Source of the DNA: an uncultured Candidatus Saccharibacteria bacterium
GTDB taxonomy: Bacteria; Patescibacteriota; Doudnabacteria; UBA920
Length of the DNA stretch: 64,000 bases
Direction: 5' to 3'
NCBI GenBank assembly: GCA_964474825.1
Contig: CAYYWQ010000001.1
Coordinates: 1,033,606-1,097,605, forward strand
Below the pieces are notes generated by a model, which did not search any database, had not been told where the DNA came from, and worked only from the letters and a program-made list of their open reading frames with translations. This document shows positions 2,901 to 47,376 of the stretch, piece after piece (the first letter of the stretch is position 1; each line of letters starts with the position of its first letter). A program made the translations under genes and the position numbers.

Positions 2901-3710
2901 TTACTTTGTATTTTTTTCTTCATTTTTTGACCAAATATGACCAGAAGCCATGACCCTAGCCCCTGGAGTAATCCCATCTTTTCCAGTTTTAAGTATCCAA
3001 TACTGCTGGGCTATTGTAAAAACTGTGGTCGCGGTCCAGTAAAGGGAAAGTCCGGTAACAAAGCGGAGTGACAAGTAAACAAAGAATACCGGGAAAAAAT
3101 ATGTCATCTGCATTTGCATAATTTTAGCCGTAGCATCCACCGGGCCTTTGGCTGTTGTCAGCATTAGCTTAGACTGCCAGAACTGGCTAAGTCCGGTAAG
3201 CACTGCCAGCACCACTCCCGGCCAATACCAAACACTACCAACCCAGGGGATTTTAGACAAATCTAAAAAGTGCAAAAACATAAAGCTAATATGTTCCGGC
3301 GCTTTAACAAAAGTATACAGGCCTTCAATCTGTCCGGTACCTAAAGCCGCGCGGAAAACCTGGTTTAAGGCCAAGAGTAAAGGAAGCTGGATTAACAAAG
3401 GCAAGCAGGAAGCAAAAGGGTTAATCTTGTGCTCTTTGTAGAGGTCCATCATGGCTTTAGCTTCAGCCTCTTTATTACCTTTATGCTTTTCCCGCAGTTC
3501 AGTAAGCTTTGGCTGCAAGTCGTTCATGGCCTTTTGGCTTTTGAGAGACTTGTGGAAGCTGGGCGCCAAAGCCAAACGAATAAGTACAGTAAGTAAAATA
3601 ATAACCACGCCAATGTCGTGGCCCGGAATGACATTGTAAAAAAAGATCAGCAGGTTAAGCAGAGGGCGGTAAACGGATTCGTGATATAAAACACTAATAA
3701 AATGGAACAT
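2901..3710 (-). CDS. yidC: Membrane protein insertase YidC/Oxa1 family
   Basis: It carries the conserved YidC core LPLLIQLPLLLAL and has several TM segments. It sits in the rnpA-yidD-yidC synteny. Confidence 0.85.
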   Translation of the reverse strand: MFHFISVLYHESVYRPLLNLLIFFYNVIPGHDIGVVIILLTVLIRLALAPSFHKSLKSQKAMNDLQPKLTELREKHKGNKEAEAKAMMDLYKEHKINPFASCLPLLIQLPLLLALNQVFRAALGTGQIEGLYTFVKAPEHISFMFLHFLDLSKIPWVGSVWYWPGVVLAVLTGLSQFWQSKLMLTTAKGPVDATAKIMQMQMTYFFPVFFVYLSLRFVTGLSLYWTATTVFTIAQQYWILKTGKDGITPGARVMASGHIWSKNEEKNTK

Positions 3711-37299: not shown

Positions 37300-38251
37300 T
37301 TTCCTCCTCTTCCCCGTAAGCGCGGCCTGTTAAGTCCAAGTAGACGTCTTCCAGAGTTGCTGTTTTAACAGTAAAGCCGTAAAAAACAATGTTGTGGGTT
37401 TTTAATAAATTAACAACGGCGGAAATTTTGTCTAAGCTGGTAATTTCCAAAATAACTTTGGGAAAATCAGCGTGGACTTTTTTTATTTCCGGCATTTTAG
37501 AAAAAAGTTTTTCGTCCACCTGGTTGTCCGTAAAAAAAGAAATCTGCGTAGTGTCGGAAAGTCTGTCTATTAGTTTTTTTGGCTCGTCTATTTCCAGTAT
37601 TTGCCCTTGGTCCATAATAGCCACGCGGTGGCAAAGGTATTCCGCCTCTTCCATGTAATGAGTGGTAATAATAATTGTAATGCCGCGGGAATTTATTTTT
37701 TTAATTAACTGCCACATGTCCCTCCGGGCTTTTGGGTCCAGTCCTGTAGTGGGTTCGTCTAAAAACAAAATTTCCGGTTCGTTAACCAGGGAAGTGGCAA
37801 TTGTAAAGCGCTGTTTTTGCCCGCCGGAGAGGTTGGAAAACTCCTCGTGCTCTTTGTCTATTAAATTTACTAAGCCAAGCAGTTCTTGTTTGTCGGCCTT
37901 TAGGTTATAGAAAGAGGCAAAGAGGTCTAAGAGTTCCCATAAACTTAAATGGTGCAGGTATTGGCTGCTTTGAAGCTGAATGCCAATCCGTTTTTTTATT
38001 TCTTCAACCTGTTTTAGGTTATCGAACCCTAAAACTTGCACAGTTCCGGAAGTCTGCGGCTTTAATCCCTCTATAATCTCTAGTGTTGTGGTCTTTCCAG
38101 CTCCATTTGGCCCTAAAATCCCAAATATCTCCCCCTTCTCTACGTTAAAGCTTGTTCCCTTAACTGCCTCAAAAACCCCTTTGCCTTTTGGCAGGGGGTA
38201 AGTTTTTTTAAGATTTGTAACTTCTATAACTTTGTCCATTGTTAAATGCAT
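37292..38251 (-). CDS. ABC transporter ATP-binding protein
   Basis: It has the Walker A GILGPNGAGKTTTLEII, the signature LSGGQKQRFTIA, the Walker B ILFLDEPTTGLD and a C-terminal accessory domain. Confidence 0.85.
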   Translation of the reverse strand: MHLTMDKVIEVTNLKKTYPLPKGKGVFEAVKGTSFNVEKGEIFGILGPNGAGKTTTLEIIEGLKPQTSGTVQVLGFDNLKQVEEIKKRIGIQLQSSQYLHHLSLWELLDLFASFYNLKADKQELLGLVNLIDKEHEEFSNLSGGQKQRFTIATSLVNEPEILFLDEPTTGLDPKARRDMWQLIKKINSRGITIIITTHYMEEAEYLCHRVAIMDQGQILEIDEPKKLIDRLSDTTQISFFTDNQVDEKLFSKMPEIKKVHADFPKVILEITSLDKISAVVNLLKTHNIVFYGFTVKTATLEDVYLDLTGRAYGEEEENE

Positions 38252-38288
38252 TATAGCATTTTGTCTTTTTTATAGGTATAATAATTTT

Positions 38289-40601
38289 ATGAATACAGAA
38301 TTTAATCCCATTGAGAAATATGGGCCAACTACTTTACCGGAGTCAAAATCAGAGCATGAACTGCGGGAATCAAAGGCAGAAGTTTTGGAATTAGGGAAAA
38401 GATTTATTCAAGGACGGGATTGGAAAGCACTGGAAGATTTAGTTAGATCTTTGCCGGACAATGATTTTCTTGTCACTCAAACTACTTTGTTACAGGAGTT
38501 AAATGATGGTTTATTTGATGTTCAACTGAAGCCTGGACCTGCCAATAGATATTTTGAAGAAGGGGACGGTTGGGAAACTTTACGCTGCGCCACAGAAATT
38601 ATAAGGAAAATGGGAAATAATCCCAGCTCATCCAAATATTTGCATAAGGTTATGGAGATGGACAGGATTCCTAAGGTTGTTTTAAAAGAAGGGCAAGCTG
38701 CCATTACTAATGATATAAATGCAGGAGCTGATTTAGATATTGATGTTCGTTGGTTTTATTATAGGGCATTGACAGAGGCTTTTTTAAAATTTCCAGACGA
38801 TCGAGCCCTGCTCGCGGTAAAGCAAATTTTAAATAAGATTGACCAGCAGGTACTTGAAAATACCAGACATTATTACTACCCTGAGGGAAAAGATATAACA
38901 GGGAGTTTTGAAGAAACGCCACAGGAGTTGTTTGACTATCAGTTCAAGGCTGCGGAATCTAATATGCCCAGTGACTTAATTGCAGGCATATCCGCCGGTG
39001 ATATGGCAGTTGGCACTAAGTCTTTTATAATAAAAAAATTAGGGGGAGCCAAACAGCCGGAATCACTTCCTATGTTTTTAGAAGTGATAAAGCTCGAAGG
39101 CTCAGATGCCCCAATATATTTTCATCCTATATTGGAGGCTCTTAGGCAATTGGACCAAAATTTGGTGGCGGACAAGCTCTTAAATTTGGTTAAGAGCGGA
39201 AACCCATTTGAAAAAAGAAGCGCATTATGGCTGCTATATAGGTTGGAAATTGGACAAGTTGGGGTTTCTGAAGAAGGCGTACATTATTTGCATAAAGTTT
39301 ATGACGTGGGAAACTATAATAATCCTAATTATTATGTACAACGCTTAACTTCCGGTGGGCAGGTTGGTATTTTTTCCCAAGAGGGAAAATTTGAGAAATA
39401 TTTTAATTTGGAGGGATTGGGCAGTGAAGAACAGCGCATTAGAGCTAAATTGTTGGACATTACCTACGCTACTTTGTTTGGGCATCACGCTAAGGAGAAG
39501 CCGGAAGAACGCAAACAAAGAACAAAGTTATTAGAGGAGTTTCAGTTAAAATATTTTGAATTTTTACAACACGATTTTTTCAATGATCTTCCAGTAAAGT
39601 TTTCTGATTTAACTTTTCCGGAACAAGGGCAGTTTTTAAAATTTTATTCTGACTCTGAGGAGTCAGAAAGAGCGAGACTGAAAGATTATTGTAAGAAGTT
39701 TGGGCTAACTGGGTTTCGTTCATTAATGTCTTTGGATTATGATGGGGGTGTCGCCGCCAAGCTTTTAGACATGGCCGAAAGTTTGCCTCAGTCACGAATG
39801 CAGATGATTTTAGATAAATATGTGGCAATAGTTTCCGCAGCTGATACCGCGGAAATGGCACTTTGGGAAAACTTACCTCAATCCGCAAATGCTTCTCCAG
39901 ATTTAAAAGAACGGGTAAGAGAATTTATTATGGAAAAAGGTAGTAGATTTTTAAGGCATTTAGGGCTGGACGAATCTGAGGCATTTTCACACAAAGACAC
40001 AATCATGTATTTAAGTGGAATTCGTACAGAAGTAATGATTTATGCCGCTTTATTTAAAGAACTTTCTAAAATTAACAAACTTTCTATAACTGACATTAAA
40101 GACGCTAGGTTTGACATCGTCCCAGCTAAATTACTTTCTGAAGATGATAAAAAACAGATGTTGGAAATTTTTGCAAATAATAGAGACGAGAGCTATCCTT
40201 TAAAGTTGAGAGAAGCGACGTTAAGAAGTTTTGAGCAAACTTTACAAGCAGAAGGGCCGGTTTTTAGAGTGCTAAAGTACAAAGGAAGTATTGTGTCGTT
40301 TTTCCACGCTCAACCACAAGGAGAGGATGCTATTTATGTTGGATCTTTGAATTTGAGTCCTGACGCCCAAGACAGCTCTATTGCAGTTAGTATGGTAGTT
40401 GCGGCTTTGGAACAGGCCGGGACAGAAAAAAATATAACAGCTAAGGTTTGGTCTAAAAATGAAAAACTTTATAAATTTTATAAGCGCTATCTACATTTTC
40501 AAGATGATGGGGTAGAAGAGAATTATGAAGGAACGGGGGAAAATTATTACAAGCTAAAAAAACCAAAGCAGGAAGAATCTACTTTTGCAGTAGCGGCTTA
40601 A
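38289..40601 (+). CDS. Large hypothetical protein
   Basis: A long ORF with coding-like composition. The likely start is MNTEFNPIEK at 38289; the track start at 38232 overlaps the divergent ABC gene. I recognised no motif. Confidence 0.5.
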   Translation: MNTEFNPIEKYGPTTLPESKSEHELRESKAEVLELGKRFIQGRDWKALEDLVRSLPDNDFLVTQTTLLQELNDGLFDVQLKPGPANRYFEEGDGWETLRCATEIIRKMGNNPSSSKYLHKVMEMDRIPKVVLKEGQAAITNDINAGADLDIDVRWFYYRALTEAFLKFPDDRALLAVKQILNKIDQQVLENTRHYYYPEGKDITGSFEETPQELFDYQFKAAESNMPSDLIAGISAGDMAVGTKSFIIKKLGGAKQPESLPMFLEVIKLEGSDAPIYFHPILEALRQLDQNLVADKLLNLVKSGNPFEKRSALWLLYRLEIGQVGVSEEGVHYLHKVYDVGNYNNPNYYVQRLTSGGQVGIFSQEGKFEKYFNLEGLGSEEQRIRAKLLDITYATLFGHHAKEKPEERKQRTKLLEEFQLKYFEFLQHDFFNDLPVKFSDLTFPEQGQFLKFYSDSEESERARLKDYCKKFGLTGFRSLMSLDYDGGVAAKLLDMAESLPQSRMQMILDKYVAIVSAADTAEMALWENLPQSANASPDLKERVREFIMEKGSRFLRHLGLDESEAFSHKDTIMYLSGIRTEVMIYAALFKELSKINKLSITDIKDARFDIVPAKLLSEDDKKQMLEIFANNRDESYPLKLREATLRSFEQTLQAEGPVFRVLKYKGSIVSFFHAQPQGEDAIYVGSLNLSPDAQDSSIAVSMVVAALEQAGTEKNITAKVWSKNEKLYKFYKRYLHFQDDGVEENYEGTGENYYKLKKPKQEESTFAVAA

Positions 40602-41380
40602 ACAGCTTTTGCATTTTGCCACAGTGCTTCAAATACAGTTTTGTGCATTTTGTAAATTGCAGGGTGTTCTATGGTCATACTGACAATTTTTCCGGCTTCC
40701 ATGCTAATGTAAGAAATCTTGCCGTCGTAAATGTACATTATGGTGGAAAAGGCCGCGGGCGCCGGTATAACGCGAACCTGGGTAACGTTGGGGTTAAAAG
40801 TTTTAGCGTGCTGCCGCACAAAAGCGGAGTCCACCATAATAATTTTTTTCTTTATGCCTTTAGTTGTCCGCGCTTCCGTAAAGTTTTTGTTAAGTTCAGG
40901 AAATTGTTTATTTAGCGCCTCGCTGTCTATGTAAGAATAAATTTCCGTAGCTGAAGTTAAAGAATCCTCCACGACCTGTTGTGCTCCGTCCAATCCTTCG
41001 AAAAATTTAATTGTTGGTTTGGTTGCCGCGAGTTGATAAAGACTTCTAAGTCCCGGTAAGGTTTTGCCCAATTCTTCCTCCGCCGTTGTAATGGCGGATT
41101 TTTGTTTAGCTAAAAGAAGTTCCAGGTGCTCTGGATGTTTGGCTATAAATTTGGTGGTGGTTTTTGGCAAGTCTTGTTTTTCTACTAATCCTTTGGCTAC
41201 TAAGCTGTCCAGGTGGTAGTAAGCGTTGCCGCGCTTTAACTTGGTGTGGAATAAAATTGGCTTCATGCTTTGCGGACCCAAGTTTAAAAGCAGCTCGTAG
41301 ATTTGGGCTTCGTTTTTGTTGAGGCCTAGTTTTTCCAGGAGGGGGATATAAGGGGATTGTTGTATTTGATTATTATCCAT
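40598..41380 (-). CDS. TrmB-family transcriptional regulator (N-terminal wHTH)
   Basis: The N-terminus KNEAQIYELLLNLGPQSMKPILFHTKLKRGNAYYHLDSLVAKGLVEK matches the TrmB winged-helix pattern. Confidence 0.55.
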   Translation of the reverse strand: MDNNQIQQSPYIPLLEKLGLNKNEAQIYELLLNLGPQSMKPILFHTKLKRGNAYYHLDSLVAKGLVEKQDLPKTTTKFIAKHPEHLELLLAKQKSAITTAEEELGKTLPGLRSLYQLAATKPTIKFFEGLDGAQQVVEDSLTSATEIYSYIDSEALNKQFPELNKNFTEARTTKGIKKKIIMVDSAFVRQHAKTFNPNVTQVRVIPAPAAFSTIMYIYDGKISYISMEAGKIVSMTIEHPAIYKMHKTVFEALWQNAKAV

Positions 41381-41500
41381 ATACCCTTATTATGCGCCCT
41401 TTTTAGAATTTTGTCAAGTTAAAACTGACATTTTACTATTAATTTAAGCCATTTATTTAAAAGAAATATAGAGTTTATATATTATTACATCAGTATATTA

Positions 41501-41529
41501 TTGACATTTTGTCAAATTTAGACTACAAT
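41501..41529 (+). promoter_or_regulatory. Near-consensus sigma70 promoter (TTGACA-N17-TACAAT) pointing into the GC-rich island
   Basis: TTGACA is at 41501-41506, the spacer is 17 nt, and TACAAT is at 41524-41529. Confidence 0.5.
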
Positions 41530-41536
41530 GCGTAGT

Positions 41537-43240
41537 TAACATAAAAACAGCAAAAAGCACCTTTTACAATATATATGACTTTCTGAGGAGAGAGTCGGCA
41601 ATAGGCGCCGAAAAGCCTGGTAAATTAAGTCTTTTTGTCGCAATAAGCGGCTAATTGGTTATCTCTCCCAAAGAAATAGCTTGTTAGCCGCTTTTTTGGT
41701 AGAAGGGGATTTGGAGAAGAATACACCACATATTTCTTCTTCAAGTCTCTCTCTATAAAGAGGAGAGAGCCTGCGCTTAAAAAGAGCAGGTAAAAAATTC
41801 TTTTAAAACCATTTGTCTTGCTCAAAGGTTGGAGTAAGGATTAGAAACCCTAAAACAACCCCGCTCCATGCTCAGCATGGAGAAAGTAGACTTTAGCTAG
41901 AGTAGGTAAGTTACAGTGTTAAGCGCTTCGGCTTACAGGAAGCCGCGGCCCTGACCGCTTACCTATGGACCTAGCAATGAGTGCACCCTTCATAACCCAA
42001 AAGGTTGTGAAGGGAACAGTCATTGTTATAAGTAGAATATAGAATCTAGAAGATAGAATTTAGGAAATAGGTGCGTGCGGAAATTTTTATCGCCTGTGGT
42101 AAATATTTCTGCCCTCGCTACTACAGGAGTAGTGAGGTAGCACCTTAAAATTTTCAAATAAGATTTTAATTTTTGCTTAAGTTCGTCTTAAGCGTATTAG
42201 ATTTTGTCGGCAGCGTTGAGCAGCAAAGCTATGTCTTTGCTTTTTTAAGCTGCCGACAAGCCATGCATCTTTTTGGCGCATGGCAGCAGAAAAGGAGGCG
42301 GATATCGTGGAATACCCGCCGGGCAAGCAATAAAATTGCCGGGGTACAGCGTGAACCCTATCCCAAATTCGCTCGACAACTTCTGTGGCCTTTGCAGAAG
42401 ATCGTATTGATAAGGCAACCGGCAAGCAATTCTTGCCAAAGGAGGGTGGAAATGAAAACTCCACCTGGAAATAGGGGTAACTGGAAGAGGCCCAAAAAAC
42501 CAGCAACCGGAAACCTAGGGTATTAGTTGTCCCTAAGTGGAAGGTAAAAACCCGTCGCCGACAACTAAATGTGCTGCAGGAGTAAGGTAAGACTAGTAGT
42601 TATATTAGTAGGCTTGGATAAGGGCGTATGATCCTGGACTGAGTTAAAAGTATAATGAAGTGCTTATCTGAAACTGCACACATGGCAAGGAAGAGTCCTC
42701 CCTCCAGGAGGTGAGCGAGCTTGGGATAGTATCTCCGGGCCGCCTGCCTGGAGAAACTGCTCTATACCCCGAGGATCCGATGCTTCATGATTTGGGGTGA
42801 ACTTCCAGACGCCCAGGCACTTTGTTTTAGGAGGTGTGTTATGTTGAAACTTCCGTTTTAGCCCGGTCTCTGGATCCGGGCGAAGCCTGCCGCAAGGTAG
42901 GAAAACCAGCAACCAACCTATAGCAACAGATAGCTATGGGAAGGTTTACCCTAGGCCGTGTCTGTATGTTTTGTTAAGTAGTTTACGGAAAGGCGGATGA
43001 TCTGGAACGTAAACGAAAGGCGAGGCATGGTCGTGTGGTCCCGTGCGGCAACGGGACAAGGAAGAAAGTCTCTCCGCGTCTGTGGAGAGGATGGGCGAGC
43101 TCGGGACACAATTCCGCGGCTCGGCCTGTCCGAGTCCGCGGGAGAATGCCCAGAATCTTTCAGACGCCCGAGCGTTTTTGTTGTAAAAATCAAAACCGCC
43201 CGCGGCGCCGGATGATGCGCCAAGGGCAAAGGAGCTTGTC
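41537..43240 (+). other. About 1.7-kb non-coding, hairpin-dense leader / candidate large structured RNA preceding the Ubl-conjugation operon
   Basis: There is no ORF with credible composition. I saw at least ten perfect 5-10-bp hairpins by eye. Two 26-nt direct repeats lie at 42803-42828 and 43158-43183. G+C rises sharply from about 41830 onward. Confidence 0.3.
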
Positions 43241-44308
43241 ATGGTTGAGGTAAAATGGGGTGCAAATGCGGATCGTCCGTATTGGTTTCCCTTTAGTGAT
43301 CAGATAAAAGAATGGCTCTCTAATAACGAGAGCCTGCCAGACACTTTGTTGTACCTGCGCCCAACGTATAAGGAGGGGCAGCAGGAGCAAGTGGCTGGAC
43401 GTTTGGTTGTTGTGCTGGGTCGTGATGATTGGCCGAGCACAAAAGGGACCCTTGAGGCGGAAGGGAGCTTGAAGATTGACTTCATTCCGCAGGGTAATTT
43501 TCTTCGGATTTGGGGGCTACCAAATTGTCCCGACCGGAGAGACGGCGAGGAGGTGGTGAGGATTCTGAGTCGTCTGTTGCCCGAGGTTGCAAAGACTGAC
43601 CCACAAAAAAAACTTGCAATAATGGCAATGGTCTCTGAGGCCTATGTTAAAGAGTGCTCGAAGAGATTTGAAAAAACCCTTGAAGGAACCCGCAAGGCGA
43701 TCAAAGACGGTAACGCAGCCGTGGCCAAGCTCCAAGTGGAGCTCGTGAAAAAGATTCGCGAGACCCGAGGGGCTGAGCGCAAGCTTGAGCAAATGGAGTC
43801 CTCGCGCGAAGCGCAGACCGAAGGATACGCGCAGGAGTTTAATAAACTCCTGCAGGTCCCTAAAGTCCGTAGGGTGGAGGCAAAGGAGGGCAAAGTGATA
43901 GTTTACACCGACGTTCTTTTTTGTACGGATCCCCGGACGGGGATATGTCACGAGATTGGCGCGTTCAGGATTGAACTAGTTGCGGATATGGGGATCCCGT
44001 ACTGGTTTAACTTAACCCGTTCCGTTGACGGGTACAACAATAGAATGCAGGCACCACATATTTACTCGAACGGGCAGGCCTGTCTGGGTAACGCCGCGGA
44101 AATCTTCCCGGAACTCATAGGTAACTATGAGTTTGCGGCCGCAGCCATGGTGGCTATCCAGTTCGTGGAGTCGGTGAACACCGACGACACGGCTGGAAAA
44201 CACATTGACAAGTGGCCGGTGGCGAAGGAGCAACCGGTCAAAATCGCAACCGCAACAAAGGTGGCAAATTTAGTGCCGCCACAACCGTCTTGGAGGAGCA
44301 ATGGCTGA
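43241..44308 (+). CDS. E2-like (UBC-fold) ubiquitin-conjugating enzyme homolog with a roughly 200-aa N-terminal coiled-coil extension
   Basis: The C-terminal segment IPYWFNLTRSVDGYNNRMQAPHIYSNGQACLGNAAEIFPEL parallels the E2 core YPF.PP...F.T.IyHPNI..nG.ICLdiL, with the catalytic Cys in the xCL position. An SD (aaggag) precedes the ATG. Its stop overlaps the next gene. Confidence 0.5.
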   Translation: MVEVKWGANADRPYWFPFSDQIKEWLSNNESLPDTLLYLRPTYKEGQQEQVAGRLVVVLGRDDWPSTKGTLEAEGSLKIDFIPQGNFLRIWGLPNCPDRRDGEEVVRILSRLLPEVAKTDPQKKLAIMAMVSEAYVKECSKRFEKTLEGTRKAIKDGNAAVAKLQVELVKKIRETRGAERKLEQMESSREAQTEGYAQEFNKLLQVPKVRRVEAKEGKVIVYTDVLFCTDPRTGICHEIGAFRIELVADMGIPYWFNLTRSVDGYNNRMQAPHIYSNGQACLGNAAEIFPELIGNYEFAAAAMVAIQFVESVNTDDTAGKHIDKWPVAKEQPVKIATATKVANLVPPQPSWRSNG

Positions 44309-45035
44309 AAAGTTAAGGCGTGAGTGGGGCGGCGCCAAGAAGTTTGCGCCTCATGAATTTTCCTCGCGAGTAGAACTCGCGGGAGGCTTGCCTCGGGTTC
44401 TCGTGACCCGCGATGCGTACGAAGATATGTACTGCATCGTTGACGCGGTCGACAAAGAGGTAGGTTGGCTTGGCGCTGTCCAGCGTCTCGGAAATGATTT
44501 TCTGATCACGGAGGTTTTCCTCTTTGACCAGGAGACGCACGCGACAACGTGTGAGATCACGCCCGACGGCATGGCGGAGTTCGCCATGCAGCTCATGTCG
44601 TCCCGACCGGACGGCATGGAAGTAGCCAACTCAATCCGCTTCTGGGGGCACAGTCACGTGAATATGGGGACCAGCCCTTCGGGGCAGGACGAGACCCAAT
44701 TGCGTGAGCTGGCGGCTTCGTGTGGTGATTTTTTCGTTCGGGGCATTTTGAATAAGTCCGGACGGATGGAGTGGACCATCGTACTTGCTTCTGTTGGCGT
44801 CGTAATCCGCGACGCCGCGTGGGAGCTTTACGAACCCGCCGCCGATGCCCGCCGCCGACAGCGGTGGGAGGCGGAAATCGCAACTAAAGTCCGGGAAAAG
44901 ACCTACCCGCAACCGACCTTCGGGTCGGAACGTCGGTGGTCATCAACGATTATTCCCGGACCGGTCGCCTCCGCGGTCCCGCTCTCCAAGCGGGCACAGC
45001 GGCGGCTAGAGAAAGCGGGCAAAAATGGCCATTGA
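44301..45035 (+). CDS. JAB/JAMM (MPN+) metalloprotease-family protein, a putative Ubl-processing/deconjugating peptidase
   Basis: It has a complete JAMM motif: E (LITEVF) ... HSHVNMGTSPSGQD, which is HxHx7Sx2D. It overlaps both neighbours, indicating translational coupling. Confidence 0.65.
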   Translation: MAEKLRREWGGAKKFAPHEFSSRVELAGGLPRVLVTRDAYEDMYCIVDAVDKEVGWLGAVQRLGNDFLITEVFLFDQETHATTCEITPDGMAEFAMQLMSSRPDGMEVANSIRFWGHSHVNMGTSPSGQDETQLRELAASCGDFFVRGILNKSGRMEWTIVLASVGVVIRDAAWELYEPAADARRRQRWEAEIATKVREKTYPQPTFGSERRWSSTIIPGPVASAVPLSKRAQRRLEKAGKNGH

Positions 45036-45732
45036 TCCGCTTCGGCATCTAAGCGTCTTTTCGCCGCATGCCTTTGGGCAGCGGCGGGTAGACGTAATTG
45101 GCTGCGGGGCCACAGGGTCCCGTATTGTGCTTTCTTTGGCGAAGCTCGGCGTGGAGAACATTCACGTGTGGGACTTCGACGTCGTCGAAGAGCACAACAT
45201 TCCGAACCAAGCGTTCTGGCAGGAAATGCACGTCGTGCACGATTCTGCCAAACCGAAGCTGGCGAAGGTCTCGGCCATGGCCGAGATCGTCGAGATCGCC
45301 ACGGGGACCAAAATCACCGTCCATCAGGAGAAGGTGGACGGCACCCAAAGCTTGGGTGAAGTAGTTTTTCTTCTCACCGACACCATGTTTTCGAGAAAGG
45401 AGATTTGGGAAGGAGCCTTGAAGTTCAAGCTCCGGACCGAACTCTTAATTGAGACCCGCATGGGTGCGGACTCGGGCCGGGTGTATAGCCTGGACCCGAA
45501 TAAGCTCGGCCAAATCAAAGCATACGAGGAGACTCTGTGTTCTGACGAAGAGGCCGAGGTTAGCGCTTGCGGCGCAAGTGTGTCGGTGGGGTCAACCGCG
45601 GAAGTGATTTCCGGACTCGCGGTCTGGCAAATGATTCGATGGTTTTCCATTGAGCAGGGAGGCGACGATGAGCTCGACAACGAGATCATTTTTGGCCTCC
45701 GCCCAATGCTGACCATCAGCAGGAAGTTTTGA
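45025..45732 (+). CDS. ThiF/MoeB-type E1-like activating enzyme
   Basis: It has the Rossmann/ATP motif VDVIGCGATGSRIVLSLAKLGVENIHVWDFDVVEEHNIPNQ, with Gly-rich GxGxxG and acidic DxD, and a downstream Cys-containing block ACGASVSVGSTAEVISGLAVW, which is the E1 catalytic-Cys region. Confidence 0.7.
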   Translation: MAIDPLRHLSVFSPHAFGQRRVDVIGCGATGSRIVLSLAKLGVENIHVWDFDVVEEHNIPNQAFWQEMHVVHDSAKPKLAKVSAMAEIVEIATGTKITVHQEKVDGTQSLGEVVFLLTDTMFSRKEIWEGALKFKLRTELLIETRMGADSGRVYSLDPNKLGQIKAYEETLCSDEEAEVSACGASVSVGSTAEVISGLAVWQMIRWFSIEQGGDDELDNEIIFGLRPMLTISRKF

Positions 45733-45733
45733 T

Positions 45734-46051
45734 ATGGGCTGGCTGGCGGGCCGTAACGAGATAATTCAACTTCGTCTCCAACCACCAAAGCCAACGGCCT
45801 ATGTTAATTTTGGTTCAGGTATTGAGTTCACTGCCGACTTCATTGTTGGTATGACACTTCGCAACCTGATCCAGTTTTTGCAGCAGAACTGTAGCTATCG
45901 TTCTATTCACGGCGATGAAATCCCGTGGTTGCATGACTTCCTGCGAACCGGCGACCTTAAGAATTTCCCGGCGGATTTGGACTATGTTATCCAGCCGGGT
46001 GACAAAATTGTTCTGGACTTAACGAAGTTGTTGAGTCCGGTAAGTAAGTAA
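45734..46051 (+). CDS. Small beta-grasp (ubiquitin-like/ThiS-like) protein without a terminal Gly-Gly
   Basis: It has the C-terminal beta-grasp-like DYVIQPGDKIVLDL pattern. Its start is 1 nt after the E1 stop. It ends ...LLSPVSK, with no GG. Confidence 0.4.
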   Translation: MGWLAGRNEIIQLRLQPPKPTAYVNFGSGIEFTADFIVGMTLRNLIQFLQQNCSYRSIHGDEIPWLHDFLRTGDLKNFPADLDYVIQPGDKIVLDLTKLLSPVSK

Positions 46052-46183
46052 ATGTAGTATAGAGGCCGGCATTGCCGCCCGTCGAATGTAGACGTTAAAA
46101 AATATGGGTCCCAAAGGGATTAAATTTAAAACCCATCCGCAGTTTGTAGAGCATTGGCAAACAGCGAAGACAGGAGTAAAACA

Positions 46184-46966
46184 ATGCGGAGTTTCATTAA
46201 CGTCAGAATCGGCCGGCTCCCCGGTCGGATTTCGGAAATTGTGCTTAATGGCGACCGCACGGTCGCTACCGCGTTGATGACCGCCGGCCTGGACAGCGCT
46301 GGCTACGATATCCGGGTGCAGGGTGCACCCGCGAGCATGACAACCGGACTCAACGAGGGGGACATTGTCCTCCTCGTGAAGAAGATCAAGGGGAACGGCG
46401 GGATTGAGGGCGCAACCTTCGTTCACGTCGGCCGCGTCCCCGGACCCGGTCTTGTCCAGTTTGCACTGGATGAGCCCACGGTCTTCATGGCTTTGTCTGC
46501 CGCTGGTCTCAATCTGGGGCCGGATGAGGTGGTTTACCGCAACGACCAGCTTTCTTCCATCGGGGAACCGGTGGAAGACGGCGACAAGATCGTCGTCCGG
46601 CATCCGATGCCGGCGATGGTCGCGGCTTCGCCGGAATTGCCGTCCGGCTTGCACCAGACTGCGCCGGTAGTTTCTGCCACGTTCGATTTCTCGGCCGTGG
46701 TCGGCACCGACCCGGCCCAGCTCTGCTCCAGCGCGGAACGGCTGACCCGCGAAGCGGAGGAGCTCGAGGCGGGAGCTCGCGCCGCGCTCGCCAGCGCGGC
46801 CGAGAAGAAGGTTGCGGCCTCGGCCCATTGGGCCAAAGCCGCGGCTATCGAGACCGCCAACGAGGCGTTGGCAAATGCCAGCGCCCAGCTCGAAACCCTT
46901 GGGGTTATTCGCCCCAAGGGCGAAGGACGGTGGACTGATATCCGCCGCCTCTTCGGCCTCTCGTAG
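46184..46966 (+). CDS. Tandem beta-grasp (multi-ubiquitin-like) protein with an internal KGNGG and a C-terminal Ala-rich coiled coil
   Basis: Module 1 is INVRIGRLPGRISEIVLNGDRTVATALMTAGL...EGDIVLLVKKIKGNGG, with a diglycine at the module end. Module 2 is ...GPDEVVYRNDQLSSIGEPVEDGDKIVVRHP. The SD (aggag) favours the ATG at 46184 over the track start at 46154. Confidence 0.5.
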   Translation: MRSFINVRIGRLPGRISEIVLNGDRTVATALMTAGLDSAGYDIRVQGAPASMTTGLNEGDIVLLVKKIKGNGGIEGATFVHVGRVPGPGLVQFALDEPTVFMALSAAGLNLGPDEVVYRNDQLSSIGEPVEDGDKIVVRHPMPAMVAASPELPSGLHQTAPVVSATFDFSAVVGTDPAQLCSSAERLTREAEELEAGARAALASAAEKKVAASAHWAKAAAIETANEALANASAQLETLGVIRPKGEGRWTDIRRLFGLS

Positions 46967-47376
46967 TAGACGAGGTGCGCGAAATTTTGTCACCGTCTTA
47001 GCAACAGATGGCGAGACAAGCAGGGGCAGACCTGCAAACATCAAATTAATAAAAAGGAAAATAAAAAAAGGTAAAAAAATAAATCTTCCCGCAAGGGTTG
47101 CCTGAAACCTTAAAGCACCACAGGCGTAAAAGCACGGGTACACTGATCGTAATGTCAACGAGTTTAATAAAATAGGTCTCTGCCACAAGGCGGAGGCCAT
47201 CGAGTCAAGAAGTAAATGGCAGGGTGATGCCCACCTGCCAGCCACGAAGTTGTGGCAAACAAAACGGGACAATGCACCAAGATTGGGGAGAGGTAGACTG
47301 CACACCTACCTTTCCTCTTTCCAATTTAGCGCACAAAATTTTTGTGAGCTGGATTGGGAGGTGAAGTATTAAAAAA

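Follow-up and report, generated by a model that had tools for sequence, protein, structure and literature searches.

Locus architecture and coding status

The window analysed here is a 64,000-nt stretch (64 kb) of the genome of an uncultured Candidatus Saccharibacteria bacterium (contig CAYYWQ010000001.1; coordinates count from the first nucleotide of the stretch). Within it, a gap at 41381–43240 separates a divergent TrmB/MarR-type regulator gene (40598–41380, minus strand; Pfam TrmB helix-turn-helix, 6.5e-12) from the first gene (gene 1, ATG at 43241) of a predicted ubiquitin-like (Ubl) conjugation operon. An earlier reading made from the sequence alone (the sequence-only reading) had described this gap as hairpin-dense DNA with no credible open reading frame (ORF), and as a candidate large structured RNA or complex leader. 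Here we report that the gap is non-coding and that its 3' part contains two tandem copies of an RNA module with a conserved, pseudoknotted core, preceded by very short ORFs that mostly encode a Pro-Pro motif.

The longest ORF within 41381–43240 encodes at most 117 aa, and the gap ORFs gave 0 Pfam matches. Substitutions between the window and its closest homologue (locus L007) showed no 3-nt periodicity across the gap (p=0.78, versus p=1e-9 for gene 1), and only 8 of the 36 insertions and deletions in the gap were multiples of three. These data speak against a hidden gene or pseudogene, including the frameshifted gene that the sequence-only reading had named as its own possible undoing, and bear out its view that the gap is non-coding. 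One ORF inside the second core (43091–43186, MGELGTQFRGS...) was rejected; its start codon is absent from six of the 10 core copies, and its presence in L007 and L011 merely reflects conservation of the RNA sequence.

A sigma-70-type promoter for the leader and operon (TTGACA-N17-TACAAT) is present on the plus strand at 41501–41529, as the sequence-only reading had proposed, and scored 11/12 in a promoter scan. Its counterpart in L007 reads TTGACA-N17-TATACT. The divergent promoter of the regulator gene (41389–41417, minus strand) also scored 11/12, and inside the leader the scan found no promoter-like site apart from the 41501–41529 region. A palindrome, TTGACA-TTT-TGTCAA (41501–41515; region 41500–41519), overlaps the −35 element of the leader promoter, and a related palindrome at 41411–41429 (TGTCAAGTTAAAACTGACA, region 41403–41432), which is its direct-repeat partner, overlaps the promoter of the regulator gene. 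Both are kept in L007. The two palindromes are probably operators of the TrmB-like regulator, which probably gates the leader promoter.

Exact and homology look-ups with gene 1 identified nine further independent loci. The arrangement of regulator, 1.6–2.6-kb gap and operon is common to five Patescibacteria-type loci (the window, L004, L007 (identical to L057), L061 and L070). In the last four, the operon encodes a gene-1 homologue, a ~235–250-aa protein, a ThiF E1 and a product that matches ThiS faintly. Using nhmmer, the module described below was found directly upstream of gene 1 in L004, L006, L007, L011, L058, L059, L060 and L061, with two tandem copies in L007, as in the window. The gaps of the window and L007 align end to end at 65% identity, compared with 64% for gene-1 DNA and 53% for the regulator gene. 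The second core with the hairpin before gene 1 is 88% identical, while the gene-1 proteins are about 60% identical by global alignment (56% by tblastn). At the DNA level, conservation of the leader equals or exceeds that of coding sequence.

Tandem modules share a covarying pseudoknotted core

The 3' part of the gap is built from two diverged tandem units of ~350–400 nt, with repeat families spaced 355, 380 and 406 nt apart (local-alignment z=8.2). Unit A covers about 42436–42825, or about 42290–42825 with an extra mini-ORF at 42307 included, and unit B covers 42826–43240. Neither this architecture nor the mini-ORFs with strong Shine–Dalgarno (SD) sequences and Pro-Pro-Gly motifs featured in the sequence-only reading, which had instead picked out two 26-nt direct repeats as paired regulator-binding or processing sites. 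The two 26-mers are present (42803–42828 and 43158–43183), but only 18 of their 26 positions are identical, and a role as paired sites is not borne out; each is the 3' strand of the pseudoknot helices P1 and P2 in one copy of the module, and AGACG separates its P1 part from the P2 part that follows.

The core is 95–135 nt long among copies and comprises helix P1 (GGAAGAC/GUCUUYC), hairpin Ha, helix P3 (GGGC/GCCC), helix P2 (GCUCGGG/CCCGAGC) and hairpin Hc. Because P1 and P2 interleave, the fold is a pseudoknot. Ha is variable, but always has a pyrimidine-rich 5' arm and a GGAG-like 3' arm. In the window, core A (42686–42820, plus strand) scored 76.6 bits with a covariance model (CM R1), carries an extra inserted hairpin (42766–42797) and has the first 26-mer as its 3' end, while core B (43057–43175, plus strand) scored 94.5 bits and has the second 26-mer as its 3' end.

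Since a plain MAFFT alignment misregistered the variable hairpins, a segment-wise structural alignment with N padding was used, in which the register of P1, P2 and P3 was anchored by invariant flanks. Across the 10 copies, 95.9% of cells were paired, including every cell of P2, and 20 of the 36 core pairs changed on both sides, compared with 1–6 in slid-partner controls. None of 500 shuffles reached the observed values. The core of L070, which lay outside the structure derivation, was found by the CM (56 bits, E=2e-12) and keeps all helices through compensatory changes (P1 GGACAGG/UCUGUCC; P2 GUUCAGG/CCUGAGC). G-U pairs are frequent and would turn into C-A mismatches if the opposite strand were read, which indicates that the RNA comes from the plus strand. 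Unpaired junction nucleotides are invariant at GAGAAUGC, CAGACG and GCGAGCU. Taken together, conserved structure on the plus strand is supported by covariation among homologues, the check that the sequence-only reading had called for, and the core is a previously undescribed RNA fold. As in riboswitches, a conserved, covarying, aptamer-like structure lies upstream of a downstream gene.

A CM search of 56 loci (364 kb) and the window returned no core copies beyond the training set; the modules of L006 and L058 have diverged and were detected only by nhmmer and by eye. Among viral contigs, covered by one protein scan and two motif scans, the core motif was not found. The sole viral CM match (L069, 21.5 bits) was attributed to chance, being inside a 686-aa ORF on the other strand with its P2 strands unpaired. 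A scan of species-representative genomes with gene 1 gave only one distant locus and was uninformative. Separately, a 17-nt stretch of the window at 42358–42374 is 88% complementary to 42713–42729. A long-range pairing of the two would compete with the 5' strands of P3 and P2 in core A; it is not conserved in L007 and was left out of the model.

Mini-ORFs with a Pro-Pro motif head the modules

We identified 13 strong-SD mini-ORFs in nine loci, which head nearly every module and, like the short ORFs of known attenuators, have their own ribosome-binding site (RBS). In the peptides quoted here a stop codon follows the last residue unless dots are given. In the window, mini-ORF 1 (42293–42333, plus strand; SD AAGGAGGCGG, GTG start, 42307–42333) encodes MEYPPGKQ, and the 3' part of its SD pairs with its Pro-Pro codons; it is present in L007 as MEYPPI.... 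Mini-ORF 2 (42439–42526, plus strand; SD AAGGAGGGTGG, ATG start, 42452–42526) encodes the 24-aa MKTPPGN... and has an SD/Pro-Pro hairpin at 42445–42465. Mini-ORF 3 (42829–42861, plus strand; SD AGGAGG, ATG start, 42841–42861), which lies 22 nt after core A, encodes MLKLPF without Pro-Pro, and its L007 counterpart encodes MVLKYPV. Elsewhere the peptides are MTPPD (L004), MMSPPGF (L006), MPPG (L011), MSPPGLL... (L058), MNSPPDW (L059), MMNSPPGY (L060) and MPPW (L061, two copies).

Eleven of these mini-ORFs have Pro-Pro in frame, even though the number of codons separating it from the start ranges from 0 to 3, and in 10 of the 11 it is followed by G, D or W. Between copies, synonymous Pro codons replace one another. 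In most modules the motif is conserved, and the mini-ORFs are presumably translated. PPG, PPD and PPW are among the strongest ribosome stall motifs dependent on elongation factor P (EF-P), and the mini-ORFs match the synthetic fMPPG-type model peptides used in EF-P studies. PPG stalls, relieved by EF-P, alter transcription–translation coupling and attenuation (PMC5021804).

The Pro-Pro codons (CCACC/CCGCC) can pair with the 3' part of the SD (GGUGG/GGCGG), with covariation, in eight of the 11 Pro-Pro copies, which places the AUG in the loop. The consensus fold instead pairs these codons with a downstream GUGG, and the two pairings suggest an attenuator-like competition. In L058–L060 the SD/Pro-Pro hairpin is lost and the peptide motif kept, which argues for selection on the peptide.

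Recurrent stem-loops, the leader hairpin and placement of the core

Between mini-ORF and core lies the 5' half of a module, in which a long hairpin covaries, CCGAG pairs with CUCGG and a stem-loop has the loop C-R-N-W-U-G-A-W (CGNAUGAU). In the 5' half of module A (42527–42685, plus strand), a long-range helix formed by ATGTGCTGCAG and CTGCACACAT encloses the stem-loop GGG-CGUAUGAU-CCU (42622–42635). That of module B (42862–43056, plus strand) has hairpins at 42862–42880 and 43039–43056, both of which covary with homologues, and a GGCGGAUGAUC element at 42992–43002. The CGNAUGAU stem-loop occurs in 19 sense-strand copies in the leaders (1.64/kb versus 0.04/kb elsewhere, a 40-fold enrichment), and its stems covary. 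Readings of its loops as K-turns, C/D boxes, anti-SD sequences of 16S rRNA or tRNA mimics were tried by eye, and none fitted consistently.

One copy of the stem-loop is always in a two-tier hairpin abutting the SD of gene 1. In the window this leader hairpin is GCCC-GCGGCGC-CGGAUGAU-GCGCC-AA-GGGC (43198–43227, plus strand), which adjoins, without including, the SD AGGAG (43230–43234). Its stems covary across loci, with the variants ggcgc/gcgcc, gcgg/ccgc, ggcgg/ccgct and gcgc/gcgc. The core itself is on the same strand as gene 1 in every copy and has a fixed placement before the next start codon. The distance from its 3' end to the gene-1 start is 48–67 nt in seven copies; in two distal copies the next mini-ORF starts after 15–22 nt, and in L070 the distance is 255 nt.

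The 5' domain, overall folding and known RNA families

Upstream of the modules, a structured domain (41885–42290, plus strand; fold z −3 to −7) is formed by a chain of stable hairpins at 41972–42028, 42070–42147, 42174–42194, 42203–42260 and 42260–42284. By nhmmer the 5' region (41530–42334) is common to L007 only, with the 42203–42260 stem also in L006. The consensus fold of the window and L007, based on these two sequences only, has 120 pairs, 13 of them compensatory and 0 broken. The 42203–42260 stem contains a 12-bp inverted repeat (TTGTCGGCAGCG...CGCTGCCGACAA), which was also seen at 1813–1907 in L007 and 18–137 in L006. It is invariant in the three loci, with a loop of 36 to about 95 nt, and no covariation was seen, so that it could be a protein- or DNA-level site.

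Nearer the promoter, a long imperfect hairpin followed by T6 (41642–41702, plus strand; inverted repeat, fold z=−6) corresponds to the terminator-like element gcggctaa...ttagccgc+T6 of the sequence-only reading, which we place at 41647–41697. The hairpin and T6 are indeed there, but they are specific to the window, and the stretch around them (41593–41770) is the least conserved of the leader, being 27–35% identical or largely deleted in L007, where the element itself is deleted or unalignable.

All the hairpins that had been listed were found (41864–41882, 42113–42137, 42206–42257, 42260–42284, 42445–42465, 42862–42880, 43039–43056 and 43070–43089). The description of the gap as hairpin-dense is apt for its 5' half, where 150-nt windows on the plus strand gave fold z-scores of −3 to −7 (41600–42350), but less so for the 3' half (42300–43240), where local z was only −0.2 to −2.5 because the helices there are long-range and pseudoknotted; folded as whole units, the two tandem units gave z=−2.5 and −3.9. 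Overall, folding of the gap differed only marginally from that of the coding flanks (p=0.06). Some coding windows within the operon also fold unusually well (43300–43449, z=−6.6; 44100–44249, z=−5.6; 45000–45149, z=−5.4; plus strand), hinting at more RNA structure within the mRNA.

The Rfam scan proposed in the sequence-only reading was carried out, and at gathering thresholds Rfam 15 gave no match in the 64-kb window or in nine homologous loci; even at E<=10, only unrelated sub-threshold noise was found in 41300–43400. A scan for tRNA and tmRNA found none. The suggestion of a large ornate RNA of the GOLLD or ROOL kind thus finds no counterpart among known families, and the associated idea of a phage link fares no better, as the core motif is not in the viral contigs and the surroundings are ordinary chromosome.

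The downstream operon and its surroundings

Gene 1 carries an APH...G.AC.G motif. Its AlphaFold model (predicted local distance difference test score, pLDDT, 83) had the E2 UbcH7 as its best PDB fold match, although weakly (E=0.15), and a PDB sequence search with gene 1 gave no match. Gene 2 has a JAMM motif, HSHVNMGTSPSGQD, read directly; gene 3 encodes a ThiF-family E1 (3e-17), a minimal 235-aa protein without a peptide-clamp domain; and gene 5 begins with a beta-grasp-like segment ending KGNGG (internal Gly-Gly). Among the operon genes PADLOC recognises only the E1. From these motifs and models the operon appears to be of the E2-like/JAB/E1/Ubl type, with gene 1 as a candidate E2-like gene, and the ThiF, JAMM and Gly-Gly-ended beta-grasp genes agree with the earlier suggestion of a complex leader between a promoter and a Ubl-type operon.

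The GC content of the operon (43241–46966) is 52–65%, compared with ~40% for the flanking chromosome, which carries rpoBC, uvrB, ruvA and a Mur ligase gene. The operon resembles an island acquired by horizontal transfer into a genome of the Patescibacteria type. The closest RpoB relative with a name, at 85% identity, comes from a 'Patescibacteria group bacterium', and the taxonomic placement is based on this one relative. Convergent with the regulator gene, at 38232–40601 (plus strand), lies a gene for a 789-aa protein whose C-terminal domain is of the GNAT type; large ORFs occupy the same position in L004 and L061, and this protein may belong to the island. A 428-aa ORF on the minus strand (46019–47305) is probably spurious; it overlaps the Ubl-like gene (46154–46966, plus strand), for which the identical contigs L002 and L003 carry a gene call. 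Among the other leaders, small real-looking genes (85, 127 and 102 aa, no Pfam match) occupy the position of module A at L004 4898–5577 and L061 4018–4326, and the 2.6-kb leader of L070 contains a different ~50-nt repeat (TTATCCGCCTATGGCGGACCGGCRCTACGAATGCCGGACATGCGA; about 2370–2420, 2675–2725 and 3080–3120) that is absent from the window.

A model for the leader and its alternatives

The explanation we favour, with a probability of roughly 0.55, is that the gap is a conserved, structured and previously undescribed cis-regulatory leader that acts through ribosome stalling and probably a second input. Under this model, a ~1.7-kb 5' leader, consisting of the 5' hairpin domain and the two tandem modules, would be transcribed from 41501–41529 into the acquired E2-like/JAB/E1/Ubl operon. 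Each module would comprise a strong SD with its mini-ORF, a multi-helix 5' half and a pseudoknotted core ending just before the next RBS. Whether a ribosome clears or stalls on Pro-Pro-X, which would depend on EF-P or on peptidyl-transfer capacity, would decide the fold of the RNA, and the folded or unfolded core would set translation initiation, or read-through, at the next start site. The units could in this way form a relay from module A to mini-ORF 3, module B and gene 1, with the CGNAUGAU stem-loops possibly taking part in the binding of a ligand or protein by the core. That stalling changes the fold is inferred, as are the sign and step of regulation and the mechanism of its output.

Several observations weigh against this model. 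Cores without a Pro-Pro ORF exist in the B-type modules (MLKLPF in window module B, MVLKYPV in L007 module B) and in L070, so that core and mini-ORF motif are separable, stalling is not the sole or universal input, and the core probably binds a second ligand or protein. Pairing with the SD (GGUGG/CCACC, GGCGG/CCGCC) accounts in part for the conservation of CCNCC. A compact intrinsic terminator is not conserved after the core, where only six of the 10 copies have a run of at least four T within 20 nt, and a leader-peptide attenuator would need nothing nearly as elaborate as a ~300-nt pseudoknotted RNA. The core sample is also small (10 copies from eight loci, all from uncultured organisms), and in the hand-made alignment the register of Ha and Hc was chosen to pair.

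In a rival arrangement, which we regard as possible but clearly less probable, the modules are tandem riboswitch-like or protein-binding aptamers. Here the cores and CGNAUGAU loops would bind a molecule or protein, for example an operon product in autoregulation, and control the adjacent RBS, leaving the mini-ORFs an accessory part in mRNA stabilisation, standby ribosome loading or anti-Rho coupling. The many invariant unpaired junction nucleotides are aptamer-like, the tandem arrangement is typical of riboswitches, and the cores lacking Pro-Pro ORFs (window B, L007B, L070), the fixed distance from core to next start codon and the 40-fold enriched stem-loop with its covarying stems would all be expected. 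However, the enzymes of Ubl conjugation are not metabolic, so that the genes around point to no ligand; Rfam contains no relative; and both the restriction to G, D or W after Pro-Pro and the retention of the motif without a local hairpin would be left unexplained. A role in trans seems unlikely to us. The RNA would then be a new large ornate class serving as a scaffold, guide, substrate or sensor of invading nucleic acid together with the Ubl proteins, consistent with the size and complexity of the modules (~350–400 nt each, a pseudoknot and many conserved loops), their strict co-occurrence with one operon family and the upkeep of a 1.7-kb non-coding stretch in a streamlined Patescibacteria genome. 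Yet the RNA is always on the same strand and immediately before gene 1, with a conserved hairpin abutting the gene-1 SD; no internal promoter-like site beyond 41501–41529 and no conserved terminator between RNA and gene 1 was seen; and strong-SD mini-ORFs are hard to square with a purely untranslated RNA.

The 7-aa microcin C precursor MccA is adenylated by the ThiF-like MccB, and by analogy the mini-ORF peptides might be functional products, modified or conjugated by the E1-like enzyme, with the RNA merely tuning their expression. The ThiF-family enzyme in the operon, the very strong SDs and the conserved peptide motif fit this idea, which is nevertheless very improbable, given that MccB-type chemistry needs a fixed C-terminal residue and the C-termini here vary (Q, Y, D, F, G, K, W). 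The peptides vary in length between 4 and 36 aa, some loci or modules have no Pro-Pro peptide, the E1, a minimal ThiF of 235 aa, lacks a peptide-clamp domain and is encoded alongside JAB and Ubl partners, and 300 nt of covarying RNA would go unexplained. Less credible still is a known large RNA family (GOLLD, ROOL, HEARO, OLE, raiA, a group I/II intron, a T-box or similar) or decayed coding sequence. Large size and a defence-like neighbour are the only analogy with the former, and no Rfam match was obtained for the window or the nine loci; the lack of Pfam matches and of periodicity and the frame-breaking indels speak against the latter, as does the strong covariation, which implies selection on RNA pairing.

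Comparison with known systems and significance

The favoured model makes the leader a variant of the leader-ORF/riboregulator type and not a GOLLD/ROOL-like RNA. Among described systems the closest analogue is the Salmonella mgtCBR leader, which has tandem attenuators and the short ORFs mgtM and mgtP, the latter rich in proline codons (PMC3641672). In the Salmonella mgt leaders, including that of mgtA with its leader ORF mgtL, proline codons couple ribosome progress (the status of Pro-tRNA and EF-P) to alternative folds (PMC3641672, PMC6460261). Like mgtCBR, the leader described here is a long 5' leader with more than one short, presumably translated ORF and tandem regulatory units. Unlike mgtCBR, with which it shares no sequence or structural homology, it has ORFs as short as four codons with PPG, PPD or PPW, a ~300-nt pseudoknotted RNA after each ORF in place of simple alternative stem-loops, and a Ubl-conjugation operon in Patescibacteria downstream, and no conserved terminator was seen.

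More distant analogues are the RAPP-type arrest peptides (ApdA/ApdP class), whose Pro-Pro-containing upstream ORFs arrest the ribosome and regulate the downstream gene (PMC12992588). As in these and in SecM/MifM-type arrest leaders, an upstream ORF contains Pro-Pro, and arrest would be expected here too. However, RAPP-type peptides are longer, act in the exit tunnel, end in R-A/G-P-P and precede protein-localisation genes, whereas in the mini-ORFs PP-[GDW] is N-terminal and followed by 0–19 codons, which leaves most copies too short for tunnel interactions; no Arg-Ala/Gly precedes the Pro-Pro, and the genes downstream are those for E1, JAB and Ubl. Tandem riboswitches such as the glycine riboswitch, and the GOLLD, ROOL, OLE and raiA RNAs, resemble the modules in being multi-helix conserved RNAs with invariant junctions, unusually large size and tandem duplication, but differ from them in the absence here of an Rfam match, the mini-ORFs inside, the fixed position before start codons and the narrow distribution with one operon family. 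The operon itself resembles Bil/Bub-type E1-E2-JAB-Ubl operons in its ThiF E1, JAMM/JAB motif, candidate E2-like protein and beta-grasp protein with internal Gly-Gly.

To our knowledge, the means by which bacterial ubiquitin-like (E1/E2/JAB/Ubl) operons are turned on have not been described, and searches of the open-access literature yielded no account linking them to an RNA element, a long structured leader or mini-ORFs with stall motifs. The conserved 1.6–2.6-kb leader with its divergent regulator thus provides a concrete control region for Ubl operons. The retention of 1.7 kb of non-coding RNA in a Patescibacteria genome of ~1.2 Mb speaks for an important role. The core fold, with its good covariation, is suited to an Rfam entry, to structure determination and to a search for ligand or protein partners.

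If the favoured model is true, few natural EF-P-dependent stall sensors would be as minimal as the M-PP-[G/D/W] mini-ORFs, which bear on whether cells also use polyproline stalling for regulation beyond the Salmonella mgt genes. We consider it unlikely that the modules are dedicated ribosome-stalling sensors, which would register that EF-P-type rescue or peptidyl transfer had failed, for instance when a phage takes over the cell or an antibiotic attacks it, and would switch on bacterial Ubl conjugation upon stalling. Were this the case, the leader would represent a new class of pseudoknotted RNA with 4–8-codon MPPG-type ORFs in streamlined Patescibacteria genomes, and would be the prokaryotic equivalent of the connection that eukaryotes have between stalled ribosomes and ubiquitin/UFM1 signalling.

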